Positions 3,730 to 39,800 of a stretch of DNA of 62,509 nucleotides are shown here, in pieces (the stretch's first letter is position 1; each line of letters opens with the position of its first letter). The notes beneath the pieces were generated by a model. The model was given only the letters and a program-made list of their open reading frames with translations. It did no database searches and had not been told where the DNA came from. The stretch spans positions 1 through 62,509 of the forward strand of contig VBHC01000113.1 in NCBI GenBank assembly GCA_005889535.1. The letters run 5' to 3'. The position numbers and the translations under genes are program-made. Origin of the DNA: Chloroflexota bacterium (GTDB lineage: Bacteria > Chloroflexota > Dormibacteria > CF-121).

Positions 3730-4119
3730 CGCTAACTCAGCCTTACGAAAAGGGTGGCCGGTCCAGGGCCCGGCCGACCCTCCCGATAGTGCCGCCTAAT
3801 ACCAGGCCCCAATGACATCGACAAGGAAGTTGCCGAAATCCGTGCGAAGTCATCGGCGTCAAGAATGTTCGCGAAGTTGGCATAGCCTTCGCTCCTAGCA
3901 TCTCATTCCGCCGCCAATGAGGCATCTTCCAAGCAGCTCGGCCAATGAAATCTTGAGTTGGCCATCGGTAGCTAAGACTCGTGTCATGTGTAGTCGCGAT
4001 GGCTTTCCTCACCAACCGCACCTAGGTGCTAGCCCGGCATGGTGGGACAACAAGGCGCTACTGCGTCGGCCCAAGTCGAAGTAGTCCCGACCATGATTAG
4101 TTGTTACGCCCTAAATTGG

Positions 4120-4196
4120 TGGTGTCCCCGACAGGATTTGAACCTGTGCACCCGGCTCCGGAGGCCGGTGCTCTATCCAGGCTGAGCTACGGGGAC
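4120..4196 (-). tRNA. tRNA-Arg (anticodon CCG)
   Basis: Cloverleaf: GTCCCCG acceptor stem, GCTC/GAGC D stem, CCGGC-CT CCG GA-GCCGG anticodon arm, GGTTCAAATCC T arm, encoded CCA. A TATAAT -10 lies at 4211-4216 (minus strand). Confidence 0.97.
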
Positions 4197-4360
4197 ACGG
4201 ACGGGACTCGATTATAAAGACGCCGCGAAGGGCTGGTCGGCGGTTCGCGACTTGCCTTACGGAATCCGTTACAGGCGTCACCCCGCTGATTGATCACGCT
4301 CCATAAGCTGGCTTTAGGACAGGCCGGTTGGAGCGAGCTGCCTGTTCTGGAGGTGGAACC

Positions 4361-4447
4361 GTGCGCCGCTTTCTGAACCCTTGGGTCCTGATCGTGATTG
4401 CCGCGGCCGTGCTTTCCTGCGCCGAAGTCTGGCCGAACCCGCTGTAG
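4361..4447 (+). CDS. Putative secreted signalling propeptide (28 aa, MRRFLNPWVLIVIAAAVLSCAEVWPNPL)
   Basis: GGAGGT SD at 4349-4354, GTG start, basic n-region, hydrophobic h-region and an S-C-A cleavage site. Directly upstream of the HTH-TPR gene. Below the ORF-track size cutoff. Confidence 0.75.
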   Translation: MRRFLNPWVLIVIAAAVLSCAEVWPNPL

Positions 4448-4472
4448 CCGGCCTGCACTGTCAAGTGCCGAT

Positions 4473-4481
4473 TGCTAGACT
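4473..4481 (+). promoter_or_regulatory. Extended -10 (TG-C-TAGACT), probable leaderless promoter of HTH-TPR gene 1
   Basis: Ends 7 nt before the ATG at 4489; no SD is visible. Confidence 0.5.
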
Positions 4482-4488
4482 GTAGGCC

Positions 4489-5850
4489 ATGCTTACCAAG
4501 CGGCGCCCGGGGCGTCCTTCTACGGACGACCCCGGGGCGCCGAGTTCTCTTGGCCAACGGATTCGGCAATCCCGGCAGGCACTCGGGCTGAGCCTCGCGG
4601 CCGTAGCCGGCGACGATTTCAGCCGAGCCTTTCTCAACCAGGTCGAGCTCGGCCGCGCCCAGCCATCCACCCAAACCCTGCGCATCATTGCCCGCCGGCT
4701 CCAGCAACCAATCGACTATTTCCTTGAAGAGCCCGGTGACTCGAGCGCGGCACTGGAACTCATCCTTACCGAAGCGGAGATGAGCCTGTACCATAGCGAC
4801 GCCGGGCGTGCCGAACGACTCGTCGGCCGCATGCTGCATCGGCCCCTTCCGCTCGAGCTTCGAACCCGGGCTCAGTTGGTCCTGGGCACGGCGTTCTTGA
4901 GGCAGGGAAAGCCGGAGGCCGCCAAACCCGTGCTCGAGGAGGCAATCGAGGTCGCCGAGCGGTCGCCGTGGCCACACCTGCTCGTCGACCTCTATGACCG
5001 GCTGGGCAGTGTCTACTACCTCCTTCGCCATGCCCATGCGGCTGGCCAGTGGTTCGAGCGTGCGATCGAGCGTTACCAGTCGGCGGGCCTGAAAGACCCG
5101 GGGTTGAAGGCCCGCGTCCTGGGTCACCGGGCCAACCTCCATTACGTGGCCGGCCAGCCCACCGAGGCGATCGCGGCCTATGAATCGGCAATCGCCGCCG
5201 CCGAAGAGGTCCTGGACATGTCGGCACTCGCCGGCATCTACGAGGGACTCGCCCTTTCGCTACGGCAGACCGGGCAATACCATCGAGCGCTCGCATACGC
5301 GCAAAAGGGTCTGCGCCTTTTCGAGACGCTAAACGACGTCCGGATGACGGCACAGCTGCGCCTCAACATGGGCGACATGCTGCTGCAGCAGGGTCGCGTC
5401 ACGGAGGCCGATCGGCTCTTTTCCGAGGGTGCCGAGCACCTTCGCCGGATCGGCGACCACGAGCTCCTCCCCCATCTGGTCGTGGGCATGGCTGAGTCCG
5501 CTCTCGAATTCAAGGACCTGGAACGCGCGCAGGACCTCGTCCAACAGGCGATTGACCTGGCGGCTCGCTCGAGCGATCCGCTGGCGGCGGTGGCCGTCCA
5601 TCGGGTAGCCGGACGAATCGCCCACGCCCGAGGTCAGCGGGAAATCTCGCATCGTCACTTCGAGCGCGCGCTGGAAGTGGCGGCGTCCGTCGACAACCCT
5701 GACCTTCGAGCCCGGGTCACCTACGATTTCGCACGGGCGCTCGAGGCCGAGGGCGACAGTGCCAATGCGGCGCTCCGCTTTCGGCAAGCCTACGAGGCGG
5801 GCCGGGGCCCGGCGCCAGCTGCCGGCATGTCAAGTCCACTTGGCGCATAG
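4489..5850 (+). CDS. XRE-HTH + TPR transcriptional regulator (RRNPP-like peptide receptor candidate 1)
   Basis: N-terminal HTH_3 (GQRIRQSRQALGLSLAAVAG...FLNQVELGRAQPS) followed by tandem TPR-like helices with Asn residues (RANLHY, RLNMGD). Confidence 0.9.
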   Translation: MLTKRRPGRPSTDDPGAPSSLGQRIRQSRQALGLSLAAVAGDDFSRAFLNQVELGRAQPSTQTLRIIARRLQQPIDYFLEEPGDSSAALELILTEAEMSLYHSDAGRAERLVGRMLHRPLPLELRTRAQLVLGTAFLRQGKPEAAKPVLEEAIEVAERSPWPHLLVDLYDRLGSVYYLLRHAHAAGQWFERAIERYQSAGLKDPGLKARVLGHRANLHYVAGQPTEAIAAYESAIAAAEEVLDMSALAGIYEGLALSLRQTGQYHRALAYAQKGLRLFETLNDVRMTAQLRLNMGDMLLQQGRVTEADRLFSEGAEHLRRIGDHELLPHLVVGMAESALEFKDLERAQDLVQQAIDLAARSSDPLAAVAVHRVAGRIAHARGQREISHRHFERALEVAASVDNPDLRARVTYDFARALEAEGDSANAALRFRQAYEAGRGPAPAAGMSSPLGA

Positions 5851-5861
5851 GTAGGCCCCAC

Positions 5862-5891
5862 TTGACACGGGTTGATGCGACCAGCCATAAT
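5862..5891 (+). promoter_or_regulatory. Sigma70-type promoter TTGACA-N18-CATAAT upstream of the bldD homolog
   Basis: Read directly from the sequence. Confidence 0.65.
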
Positions 5892-5995
5892 GACGACCAC
5901 GGAAGGTGGTTTCGTTCGCGGAGAACGATCCCCCCGCCACCCTCCGCTCCGAACACGCAAAAAGTTTGGTTAGCGTCGCACCGTGCGATAGACTG

Positions 5996-6010
5996 GTCAC
6001 ACACAGTCAA
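5996..6010 (+). promoter_or_regulatory. BldD-box-like site GTCACACACAGTCAA
   Basis: One mismatch to the Streptomyces consensus NTNACNCWGNGTNAN; ends 9 nt before the bldD ATG. Confidence 0.45.
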
Positions 6011-6019
6011 GGGGGACTA

Positions 6020-6553
6020 ATGGACGGGTACTCGCGAAAAGTGGGGGCCAGGCTGCGCAGCCTACGGAAGCAGCGTGGCTTGACGCTGCAGCAAGTAGAG
6101 GTCCTCTCGAACAAGCGGCTCAAGGGCTCGCTCCTCGCCGCCTACGAGCGCGGGGACCGCAATATCTCGGTGACCCGCCTGCACCAGATCGCCACCCTCT
6201 ACAGCGTCCCGGTGAACCAGCTGCTGCCCGAAGAGATCGAAGGCGTTGGGGAGCCGGCGCTTCCGCCAAAGCTGGCGATCGACCTCAGCCAGCTGCAGGG
6301 CCTCCCCGAGCGCCAGGGATCGATCCTGGCGCGACATGTGGCCCGGCTCCAGCAGCAGCGGCAGGACTTCAACACCCCGGTCGTAACCTTCCGCAGCGAC
6401 GACCTCGAGCAACTCGCGGCCGCTTACAAGACGACCCCGGAGATGCTGCGCCGGTCCCTGAATGAGTGGGGTGTCTTCCGTCCTGGCCAGGCGCCGGGCG
6501 AGCGTCCCGAAGTCGAACGCGACATCCCGCCGGAGCCGGCCGAGAACCCCTAG
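6020..6553 (+). CDS. bldD: BldD-family transcriptional regulator (XRE HTH + c-di-GMP-binding CTD)
   Basis: YSRKVGARLRSLR...AYERGDRNISVTRL...LYSVPVNQLLP HTH; the CTD carries RQD-FNTPVVTF-RSDD (RxD-X8-RxxD). Start moved to the ATG at 6020, after a GGGGA SD. Confidence 0.85.
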   Translation: MDGYSRKVGARLRSLRKQRGLTLQQVEVLSNKRLKGSLLAAYERGDRNISVTRLHQIATLYSVPVNQLLPEEIEGVGEPALPPKLAIDLSQLQGLPERQGSILARHVARLQQQRQDFNTPVVTFRSDDLEQLAAAYKTTPEMLRRSLNEWGVFRPGQAPGERPEVERDIPPEPAENP

Positions 6554-38300: not shown

Positions 38301-38381
38301 TTAGCGAGGACCAGGCAAGCTGTCGGCCACGGCGAGCACAGCGGCGACGACGGTGGCGATAATCGCGAACATCCGGTACAT
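38301..38381 (-). CDS. Putative secreted signalling propeptide (26 aa, MYRMFAIIATVVAAVLAVADSLPGPR)
   Basis: AAGGAGGG SD, ATG start, signal-peptide pattern with an A-V-A site, its own terminator, and a TTGACA upstream. Divergent from the HTH-TPR gene. Confidence 0.85.
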   Translation of the reverse strand: MYRMFAIIATVVAAVLAVADSLPGPR

Positions 38382-38507: not shown

Positions 38508-39800
38508 ATGAACTCGGTGGGAGAGCGTCTTCGCGAGGCGCGCCTGGCCAGGGGCCTCACTCAGGAACAGCTCGCCCGGGGACTAGCAACCAAGGGATTC
38601 ATCAGCCAGGTGGAGCGCAACCACGCGACCCCGTCTCTCCCCAAACTTCGCGTGATCGCCGAGCGATTGGGGCAGCCGCTTTCCTTCTTCGTGACCGATC
38701 GTCCTCCGCAACTCTTGACCCTCCTTCGCAAAAGCGCCCAACTGGCGGTTCGCGCGGAAGATCCCGCTCACGCGCTGGACATCCTGGCGGAGGCGACCGA
38801 CCTGCCGGCGACGGCGAATGAGCGCGCCGATCTTCAACGGATTCGGGGCATTGCCCTTTCTGAGTTACGCCGAAATCCAGAGGCCCTTTCGACATTGCAG
38901 GACGCCGCCGCGACGGCTCCGATCGACGATGCGGAGCTGAACGCCGCGATCTATTCGGAAATCGGCACGGTCCTGCAGATCGAGGAGCGATTCAACGCCG
39001 CCATCGAAGCCAACCGACGGGCGCTCGATTGGCTCGACCGCTGCCGCCACGCCGATCCCGCGCTGCGCGCCCGGGTCCTGACCAACCTGGGAAGCAGTAG
39101 CTTCCGGCTGGGCCAGCACGCCGAAGCGATGGCCTACTTCGTCCGCGCCCTGGACGCCGCGACCGACGCCGAGAGCCTGCTACGGATCGCCAACGCCCAC
39201 ATGGCGCTGGGGGTGGCGGCCCGGGCGGTCGGTGAGCTCGACCGGGCCATCGAACATTGCAATCGGGCCCTGGAGCTCCACTCTCGGATCCATCACGAGC
39301 GGACCGCCAACCGGATCCTCAACAACCTGGGCGACGTCCATTACGCGGCCGGACGCAAGCGACAAGCGGCCGCGTTCCAGCGACGCTGCCTGGAGCGCGC
39401 GCGCGAACTCCACGACGACTTCGAGATCGGGGTCGCCGCTGGGGCGCTGGCTCGCTATGCCCTCGAGGACGGCAAGTTCGGGGACGCCCTGGTCCTGGCC
39501 CGCGAAAGTCAGCAGGCGGCCGGTCGATCCGGCGACCACCTCCATCAGGCCATCGCGGCGGCAGTGGAAGGCGCAGCCGCGGACCGCCTTGGCCGGCGCC
39601 GGCTGGCGAACCAACGCTTCACCCAAGCCCTGCAGATCCTTTTCGAGCGCAGCGCCGCCGGCGAGCTCGCCGAGGTTTGCACGATGTACGCCGATGTCCT
39701 GCGCCGACGTGGCCAGGACGACCGCGCCTTCGCCTTCATGCGAATGGCGGCCGAGCGCGATTTTCGCAAACTGGCCGCCCTCCTCAAGACGGGCAGGTAA
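38508..39800 (+). CDS. XRE-HTH + TPR transcriptional regulator (RRNPP-like peptide receptor candidate 2)
   Basis: GERLREARLARGLTQEQLA...FISQVERNHATPS HTH; TPRs with Asn residues (LTNLG, IANAH, LNNLG); paralog of 4489-5850. Confidence 0.9.
   Translation: MNSVGERLREARLARGLTQEQLARGLATKGFISQVERNHATPSLPKLRVIAERLGQPLSFFVTDRPPQLLTLLRKSAQLAVRAEDPAHALDILAEATDLPATANERADLQRIRGIALSELRRNPEALSTLQDAAATAPIDDAELNAAIYSEIGTVLQIEERFNAAIEANRRALDWLDRCRHADPALRARVLTNLGSSSFRLGQHAEAMAYFVRALDAATDAESLLRIANAHMALGVAARAVGELDRAIEHCNRALELHSRIHHERTANRILNNLGDVHYAAGRKRQAAAFQRRCLERARELHDDFEIGVAAGALARYALEDGKFGDALVLARESQQAAGRSGDHLHQAIAAAVEGAAADRLGRRRLANQRFTQALQILFERSAAGELAEVCTMYADVLRRRGQDDRAFAFMRMAAERDFRKLAALLKTGR

Follow-up and report, generated by a model that had tools for sequence, protein, structure and literature searches.

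A conserved small gene upstream of an XRE-TPR regulator

Does a short open reading frame (ORF) that directly precedes a regulator gene in a soil bacterium of the Candidatus Dormibacterota encode a peptide signal, and is the regulator the receptor of that signal? The question is raised by a locus on contig VBHC01000113.1 of assembly GCA_005889535.1, a metagenome-assembled genome (MAG) of 2.77 Mb in 221 contigs with 65% GC and a completeness of 81%; the stretch that was analysed covers positions 1 to 62,509 of the contig (62,509 nucleotides, hereafter the window). The locus consists of a 28-codon ORF, with the product MRRFLNPWVLIVIAAAVLSCAEVWPNPL, and, after a gap of 41 nt (4448-4488), a gene for a protein of 453 residues with an XRE-type helix-turn-helix (HTH) domain and tetratricopeptide repeats (TPR), which we refer to as the receptor (all coordinates are given in Table 1). 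A first-pass annotation had taken the two genes for a second, independent and co-directional peptide-receptor pair. Its description of the locus (GGAGGT-N6-GTG, an ORF of 28 codons at 4361-4447, 41 nt to the gene of 453 codons) proved right to the base when the sequence was re-read, and its interpretation is supported by the conservation of the unit across Dormibacterota genomes, by a tail motif that is repeated in paralogous precursors and by peptides that are specific to receptor clades. The pair probably represents a two-gene peptide-signalling cassette of RRNPP-like type outside the Bacillota.

A 28-codon ORF by itself is uninformative in DNA of 65% GC and we therefore examined its relatives. 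Orthologues of the receptor (57-95% identity) were found in 48 of 61 related genomes, and the hosts of near-identical loci are named as Candidatus Dormibacterota, many of them older soil MAGs with the name 'Chloroflexi bacterium CF_xx'. Every orthologous receptor with upstream sequence is preceded by a small ORF (66 loci with 37 distinct DNA versions and 32 distinct peptides, at receptor identities of 57-100%), which lies at an equal distance from the receptor, has a common Shine-Dalgarno (SD) sequence and starts with ATG, GTG or TTG at one position. The minimum numbers of substitutions at the first, second and third codon position are 38, 28 and 63, and the pooled ratio of non-synonymous to synonymous changes (dN/dS) is 0.33 in frame versus 1.15 and 2.26 in the two shifted frames. 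Every indel is in frame, both in the tail (EVWPNPL, EVVWPNP, EGAWPNPL, EVLWP) and near the N-terminus (RRFLNPW versus RRFFPW). This conservation raises the ORF above chance: it is a real, conserved gene under purifying selection, and the comparison of conservation and dN/dS in related MAGs that the first-pass annotation had proposed came out in favour of its claim. The exact 28-residue sequence was not found in a collection of 15 billion proteins, which indicates that the gene is systematically left unannotated, and the propeptide matches no Pfam family.

Association of short exported-type peptides with XRE-TPR genes

The association is not limited to the orthologous loci. We used a heuristic detector for short ORFs that asks for an SD, a basic n-region, 12 or more consecutive hydrophobic residues, a small residue at both -3 and -1, and a tail between 4 and 80 residues long. 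The background of this detector is low (101 ORFs genome-wide on both strands, i.e. 0.018 per kb per strand or ~0.009 per search window), and a positive ORF was found beside 83 of 94 distinct XRE-TPR loci, in 59 cases co-directional and in 24 divergent. The detector was negative at 13 of 20 XRE-TPR homologues from other Chloroflexota classes and at 24 loci with short XRE genes of unrelated kind no comparable ORF turned up; these two negative controls show that neither the presence of a receptor gene nor the regional composition is enough by itself to trigger it.

The most informative relatives are found in a paralogous receptor clade (53-55% identical), which is present in many of the related genomes (e.g. 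loci L031-L042, L083 and L103). Its receptors are preceded by ORFs of 60-96 residues with a signal peptide followed by two to four tandem copies of (A/D/G)(D/E/V)-I-W-P-N-(G/A), in total 34 units in 13 multi-repeat precursors (e.g. L033:1274-1498, L037:1238-1471 and, on the reverse strand, L039). The tail of the 28-residue peptide, A-E-V-W-P-N-P, equals one unit of this repeat, which points to the functional core and favours a released peptide over a membrane anchor. RRNPPA pro-peptides with tandem copies of the pheromone are on record (PMC11343458). No multi-repeat precursor was found in the 81% of the source genome that was available, where the paralogous receptor is represented by a truncated end only (contig C82:2-130). 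Where such precursors have been annotated they are called just 'hypothetical protein' (e.g. TMF89514.1).

More distant receptor clades (25-33% identity) each have a short exported-type peptide of their own, for instance ...AVA/DSLPGPR (divergent), ...FA/DGIPSGW and ...AA/DGVGPCCS (the slash marks the predicted cleavage site). The first of these is found in the window itself, where a second XRE-TPR regulator (38508-39800, plus strand) is accompanied by a divergent short ORF (38301-38381, minus strand) that ends in ...AVADSLPGPR; orthologues of this locus (L130, L132, L136, L145 and others) keep the divergent ORF, with tails such as DSLPGPR, DTLPGPR, DSFPSPR and EIWPGWK. In a tree of the receptors the peptide types follow the receptor clades, a pattern that is compatible with binding of the peptides by their neighbours and is not proof of it.

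Two further variants were observed among these families. In a class-level subfamily the tails end in Cys-Cys or Cys-Cys-x (DGVGPCCS, EGSAGCCL, DGPGWCC, DGIAGCC and DGHGGGCC at L046, L048, L134, L138 and L144), which may represent a modification or metal-binding site. In other Chloroflexota classes (L169, L170, L173) a candidate peptide gene was found downstream of the XRE-TPR gene; the peptides are longer (51-65 residues) and have the motif ...AGD(A/L)MPP(I/V)P... or ...AGSTWPPPP... in common.

Predicted export and processing of the peptide

The consensus of the orthologous peptides is M-R-R-F-L-N-P-W, followed by 12-14 hydrophobic residues, (S/A/G)-C-A and E-V-(x)-W-P-N-P-x, and the same shape (a basic n-region and a hydrophobic core of 12-15 residues, with -3 and -1 occupied by small residues and +1 by D, E or G) recurs in all subfamilies. 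The small residues at -3 and -1 directly before an acidic residue fit signal peptidase I, which would release EVWPNPL, and the product of the 28 codons is probably exported and processed to a peptide of seven residues. The source genome encodes a signal peptidase I, two LspA proteins, one Lgt and six SBP_bac_5 (Opp/Dpp) binding proteins. The signal EVWPNPL that was proposed in the first-pass annotation is plausible, with conservation confined to a shorter core, (A)E-V-(x)-W-P(-N), and C-terminal residues that are variable or absent (the peptides end in WPNPL, WPNPT, WPNPS, WPNPM, WPNPF, WPNP, WPNA or WP). Since the last one to three residues vary or are missing in relatives, C-terminal trimming is possible.

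Two other sorting signals were compared with the peptides, the twin-arginine (Tat) motif (S/T)-R-R-x-F-L-K with its invariant RR, and the lipobox [LVI][ASTVI][GAS]-C with its invariant Cys. A Tat signal was rejected as unlikely because the spacing is wrong (M-R-R-F-L-N has no residue between RR and FL) and because RR is not invariant (HR, RQ and RK occur in orthologues). The lipobox needs more consideration. In the alternative reading that it allows, the same cassette would produce a lipoprotein precursor that is processed by Lgt and LspA at V-L-S-C to diacylglyceryl-CAEVWPNPL, a nonapeptide tethered to the outside of the membrane that would act locally or release a signal after a second cut. 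The lipobox, also put forward in the first-pass annotation, is real for most orthologues: 27 of the 32 distinct peptides have (V/I/L/F)(L/V/M)(S/A/G)-C, correctly spaced from a short h-region (V-L-S-C in the source genome, and V-V-S-C, I-L-G-C and V-L-A-C among the others), and the Lgt and LspA enzymes are encoded in the genome. It is not universal, however. The Cys is replaced by Phe (S-F-A-G) in two versions of the peptide (L055/L007 and L015) and by Thr (G-T-A-G) in three versions of genus g2, all with intact receptors, and the multi-repeat, divergent and class-level subfamilies have no Cys at that position, the multi-repeat precursors carrying the A-(D/E)-I-W-P-N unit without any lipobox. 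A site of the A-x-A type for signal peptidase I (S, A or G at -3 and A at -1) is present in every orthologue. We know of no lipidated RRNPP signal, and consider the lipopeptide an unlikely product, albeit the best of the alternatives.

Somewhat less likely still is that the gene encodes an uncleaved single-pass membrane micro-protein with its WPNP tail outside, which would merely be regulated by the neighbouring XRE-TPR protein or be its membrane-anchored partner. The peptide is mostly one hydrophobic helix, its cleavage is a prediction, and small membrane proteins are common beside regulators. Yet the conservation sits in the short C-terminal tail and not in the helix, the small residue at -1 and the acidic residue or Gly at +1 are kept in all subfamilies, and the tail motif is repeated two to four times in hydrophilic parts of the longer precursors of the paralogues, which is sensible for released peptides and not for an anchor.

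We also regard it as improbable that an exported peptide with another role is involved, bacteriocin-like or resembling the ribosomally synthesised and post-translationally modified peptides (RiPPs), for which the XRE-TPR protein would be a regulator only, with no part in sensing. RiPP pathways, too, have multi-core precursors and the Cys-Cys ends of some sister subfamilies could be modified, but no gene for a modifying enzyme, a protease or a dedicated transporter is conserved beside the pair, which has a tRNA gene and a BldD-like regulator as neighbours; moreover, an unmodified peptide of five to seven residues is an unlikely antimicrobial, and the ligand-type TPR domain of the receptor would have no ligand. 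Finally, a spurious ORF, whose conservation would reflect regulatory DNA or RNA of the receptor gene (promoter or 5' untranslated region), was rejected and is almost certainly not the explanation, for although the flanking non-coding DNA is likewise strongly conserved and chance ORFs are abundant in high-GC DNA, third-position changes dominate, dN/dS is low in this frame only, the indels are all in frame, the SD spacing is invariant, and unrelated sequences in other subfamilies hold one protein-level design, even on the opposite strand.

Architecture and relatives of the receptor

In Pfam, residues 21-78 of the receptor match HTH_3 and HTH_31, and several TPR families (TPR_12 with an E-value of 7e-30) match within residues ~125-430. 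In an AlphaFold2 model based on an alignment of 20 sequences (mean predicted confidence, pLDDT, of 87) a five-helix HTH domain (residues 20-78) is followed by 18 helices (residues 86-438) that form nine TPR-like pairs. No signal peptide or transmembrane segment was found in the receptor, as expected of a cytoplasmic TPR superhelix with a number of repeats in the range of five to nine, and the modelled architecture is that of the NprR/AimR type. The highest TM-scores in a Foldseek comparison with the PDB were obtained for apo RapI (0.65/0.80) and apo NprR (0.60/0.75), and the complexes of PlcR with PapR and DNA and of the phage phi3T Rap protein with its pheromone were also among the top 50. 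The HTH domain matched PlcR, SinR, ComR and ClgR in a profile search of the PDB. Several orthologues of the receptor (P0002, P0024, P0077, P0085 and others) are named 'HTH-type transcriptional regulator, quorum sensing regulator NprR' by the JGI/IMG pipeline and 'tetratricopeptide repeat protein' by NCBI; the peptide gene was annotated by neither.

The receptor is homologous to a regulator from the Bacillota that is accompanied by a repeat propeptide. The best match in a plasmid collection was the HTH-TPR regulator WP_243495750.1 of Priestia aryabhattai plasmid pB2.1 (tblastn E = 4e-13; L188:1504-3108, i.e. NZ_CP064098.1 63572-65176), and a profile alignment of the two with hhalign gave a probability of 99.6% and E = 1e-24 over 376 columns that span both the HTH and the TPR part. 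The neighbour of the Priestia regulator, WP_243495751.1, is a convergent ORF of 95 residues that combines a signal peptide with five copies of NPIVSIDK in tandem, VALNDP being the linker between them. The Priestia pair looks like an RRNPP-type system with a multi-copy pheromone precursor, and judged from the alignments it is a sequence-level bridge between the Dormibacterota receptor and one from the Bacillota. No small-peptide neighbour was found beside a homologue of the receptor in Acetoanaerobium.

How the pair would work

In the mechanism that we propose, the 28-residue pre-peptide would be made from its own promoter and SD, exported through the Sec pathway and cut by signal peptidase I after Ala21, between S-C-A and E, to give EVWPNPL, possibly trimmed to a core of the EVWPN type. 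The peptide would build up outside the cell, be taken up again by an ABC importer of the Opp/Dpp type and bind to the neighbouring regulator, in the concave groove that its nine TPRs form. Binding would then alter DNA binding by the N-terminal XRE HTH, for which a palindrome upstream of the peptide gene is a candidate target (autoregulation, with probable feedback) and the BldD-like gene perhaps another.

Several observations weigh against signalling of the RRNPP kind or limit what can be drawn from the locus. Ranked by E-value, the generic TPR proteins LGN/Pins come first in the Foldseek search, above the RRNPP receptors, and in the profile search of the PDB the matches to NprR (7e-5), Rap (6e-4) and the HTH of PlcR (2e-5) all stand behind kinesin light chain. 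Neither Pfam nor NCBIfam gave a match of the receptor to an RRNPP-specific model. As generic TPR proteins outscore the RRNPP receptors by E-value, the receptor cannot be taken for a specific homologue of the characterised RRNPP families, and the Priestia partner system is known from its genes alone. Many of the 94 XRE-TPR loci are orthologous and not independent, which brings the number of independent units down to about five subfamilies, although the contrast with the background is still very large. The cleavage site is ambiguous because most of the orthologues also fit a lipobox. A genome-wide search that allowed at most one mismatch found no second copy of the palindrome, save one partial match, and a site that occurs only once gives no basis for proposing a regulon. 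The BldD-like gene has a near-consensus promoter of its own, so that a regulatory link with the pair is a guess from synteny.

Relation to known peptide-signalling systems

The Dormibacterota pair resembles NprR-NprX of the Bacillus cereus group (the RRNPP branch with HTH and nine TPRs) in that its receptor has an XRE-type HTH and about nine TPR-like repeats, is predicted to be cytoplasmic and is of similar size, and in that it has an adjoining co-directional small gene for an exported-type pro-peptide with a presumed ligand of 5-8 residues. It differs from NprR-NprX in gene order (the peptide gene comes first, then the receptor), in its host, which is not a member of the Bacillota, in that binding is a prediction here, and in its precursor. 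NprX has 43 residues and its active peptide is internal, whereas the pre-peptide described here has only 28 and no pro-region, so that signal peptidase alone could release the signal.

Very short precursors with a C-terminal signal are also found in PrgX-PrgQ (iCF10) and Rgg-SHP of enterococci and streptococci, in which precursors of ~22-30 residues have the signal in their C-terminal 7-8 residues and are encoded next to a receptor with HTH and TPR-like repeats (reviewed in PMC10075063). Those receptors have five TPR-like repeats, however, and their hydrophobic peptides rely on Eep and PptAB and have no classical signal-peptidase site, whereas the tail found here is polar or aromatic and lies behind a site of the A-x-A type. 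With Rap-Phr, including the Rap of phage phi3T, the pair shares the TPR superhelix fold, and the paralogues whose pro-peptides contain 2-4 copies of the core resemble the duplicated Phr peptides (PMC11343458), whereas the locus studied here is single-copy. Rap proteins have no HTH and act on proteins, and Phr needs extracellular proteases to free its C-terminal pentapeptide. In the Priestia pB2.1 pair the HTH is almost identical in motif (…LGLS…AG…R..…E.G…PS..TL.IIA.RL..PI.YFL) and the neighbouring ORF likewise combines a signal peptide with repeats, but the identity is ~22-25% and the propeptide is convergent, downstream and of another repeat.

The RRNPP(A) systems have been described as systems of the Bacillota and their mobile elements (PMC10075063, PMC12700828). 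NCBI places the Dormibacterota in the Bacillati, outside the Bacillota, so that the pair falls outside this description, a limit that is descriptive and not mechanistic. Full-text literature searches retrieved no paper that links RRNPP(A) to Actinomycetota, Chloroflexota or Dormibacterota, and none on quorum sensing in Dormibacterota. What would be new is the combination of RRNPP logic and architecture in another phylum with a minimal pre-peptide and a WPN 'dialect' common to the multi-copy paralogues, homology to the characterised families being unproven. If the pair works as proposed, an uncultured and globally common soil lineage uses several genetically encoded peptide signals per genome, from peptide genes that escape standard annotation, and synthesisable ligands (EVWPNPL and its relatives) would be at hand to probe organisms that have not yet been grown. 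Peptide sensing would also be tied to a BldD-like regulator, through conserved synteny only.

A more far-reaching possibility, which we put forward tentatively and would not expect to hold, is that true homology links the pairs of the Dormibacterota and of some Chloroflexota to the RRNPPA systems of the Bacillota, so that peptide quorum sensing by cytoplasmic TPR proteins would predate the Bacillota and be an old trait of the Terrabacteria. The search for an outgroup of RRNPPA and the choice between nine and five TPRs in the ancestral receptor are an open problem (PMC12700828). The nine-repeat receptors would in that case provide the outgroup that is lacking for a rooted RRNPPA tree, and a working pair would offer an outgroup for the nine-or-five question. 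The paralogous dialects of one genome (WPN single-copy, WPN multi-copy, xLPGxx and others) would amount to multi-channel signalling, with the system described here wired beside a BldD-like developmental regulator of the c-di-GMP type.

Regulatory sequences and neighbouring genes

The gene order tRNA-Arg, peptide, receptor and BldD-like gene is kept in all orthologous loci with enough sequence, with the BldD-like gene in each of them ~175-320 nt downstream of the receptor on the same strand. This order is not kept at the paralogous receptor loci, where the BldD-like gene is absent. Phylogenetic footprinting of 32 orthologous upstream regions revealed several conserved elements (Table 1), among them the palindrome, which lies between the genes for the tRNA and the peptide and may serve as an operator.

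Table 1. Features of the peptide-receptor locus and its surroundings (positions in the window)
Feature	Position	Strand	Evidence and remarks
tRNA-Arg(CCG)	4120..4196	-	ARAGORN; Rfam tRNA, 66.7 bits; upstream neighbour, kept in all orthologous loci
-10 of tRNA gene, TATAAT	4211-4216	- (read on)	Conserved in footprinting
Palindrome TTACGGAATCCGTTA	4257..4271	.	Core ACGGA-A-TCCGT at 4259-4269; at least 90% conserved over 32 upstream regions; candidate operator
-10-like TAAGCT, putatively of the peptide gene	4304..4309	+	Within conserved cATAAGCTG; alignment conservation
Predicted 5' untranslated region hairpin GGACAGGC...GCCTGTTC	4317..4347	+	Minimum free energy (MFE) -23.1 kcal/mol, z = -2.6; MFE stem runs into SD
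Shine-Dalgarno GGAGGT	4349-4354	+	6 nt 5' of start codon; invariant in 21 of 21 aligned orthologues
Propeptide gene, 28 codons plus stop	4361..4447	+	GTG start at 4361, TAG stop at 4445-4447
Predicted signal peptide, residues 1-21	4361..4423	+	n-region MRR, h-region FLNPWVLIVIAAAVL, c-region S-C-A; read from the sequence
Predicted mature peptide EVWPNPL	4424..4444	+	Conserved core E-V-(x)-W-P-N
Conserved box TGTCAAG	4459..4465	+	Between peptide stop and receptor start; kept in orthologues
Extended -10-like TGcTAGACT	4473..4481	+	7 nt before receptor ATG; TAGACTGTAGG kept in all orthologues
Receptor/regulator, 453 residues, XRE-type HTH and TPR	4489..5850	+	ATG at 4489; Pfam, AlphaFold2 model
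Receptor HTH, residues ~20-78	4546-4722	+	Pfam, model
Receptor nine TPR-like helix pairs, residues 86-438	4744-5802	+	Model
Near-consensus sigma-70 promoter TTGACA-18-CATAAT	5862..5891	+	11 of 12 matches; conserved in 30 orthologous loci; faces BldD-like gene
BldD-like regulator, HTH and BldD C-terminal domain	6020..6553	+	Pfam BldD-like_C, 1e-19; NCBIfam BldD, 1.5e-42, under the cut-off of that model

The -10-like element of the peptide gene has no consensus -35 and was not called by a scan for consensus sigma-70 promoters. In the predicted hairpin downstream of it 84.5% of the cells of the helix are paired, versus ~45% with the partner slid, but covariation was not above that of shuffles and RNAalifold did not recover the hairpin, so that the hairpin is not put forward as a conserved RNA structure. 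A search of positions 4000-6100 with Rfam gave the tRNA only.

Between the two genes, the combination of TGTCAAG with TAGACTGT has no further copy in a genome-wide search. The extended -10-like element is part of the conserved stretch TGcTAGACTGTAGG at 4473-4486, and the start codon of the receptor follows 2 nt later. No SD was found before this start codon. It is the first start to follow an in-frame stop, which lies 3 nt upstream of it in every orthologue with the single exception of L027/L078, where the distance is 24 nt. The leaderless position that the first-pass annotation had assigned to the receptor gene fits these observations, as the -10-like element, the upstream stop and the missing SD are consistent with a leaderless or near-leaderless start. 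A terminator scan found none between peptide and receptor. In most orthologues (e.g. L053, L058, L075 and L078) a hairpin of 3-5 bp followed by TTTC or TTTTC directly after the peptide stop resembles a mini-terminator below the size limit of the scan; the corresponding place in the window (4448-4458, CCGGCCTGCAC) is degenerate and without a T-run.

The BldD-like gene is a possible output of the system, and no copy of the palindrome was found in the intergenic region between it and the receptor (5851-6019). This region is nearly invariant over 30 loci and contains, besides the sigma-70 promoter, a small hairpin CCAC-GGAAG-GTGG, a C-rich block and a second -10-like element TGCGATAGACTG before an SD AAGGGGGA and the ATG at 6020. 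The -10-like sequence TAGACTG is common to this intergenic region and the putative promoter of the receptor.

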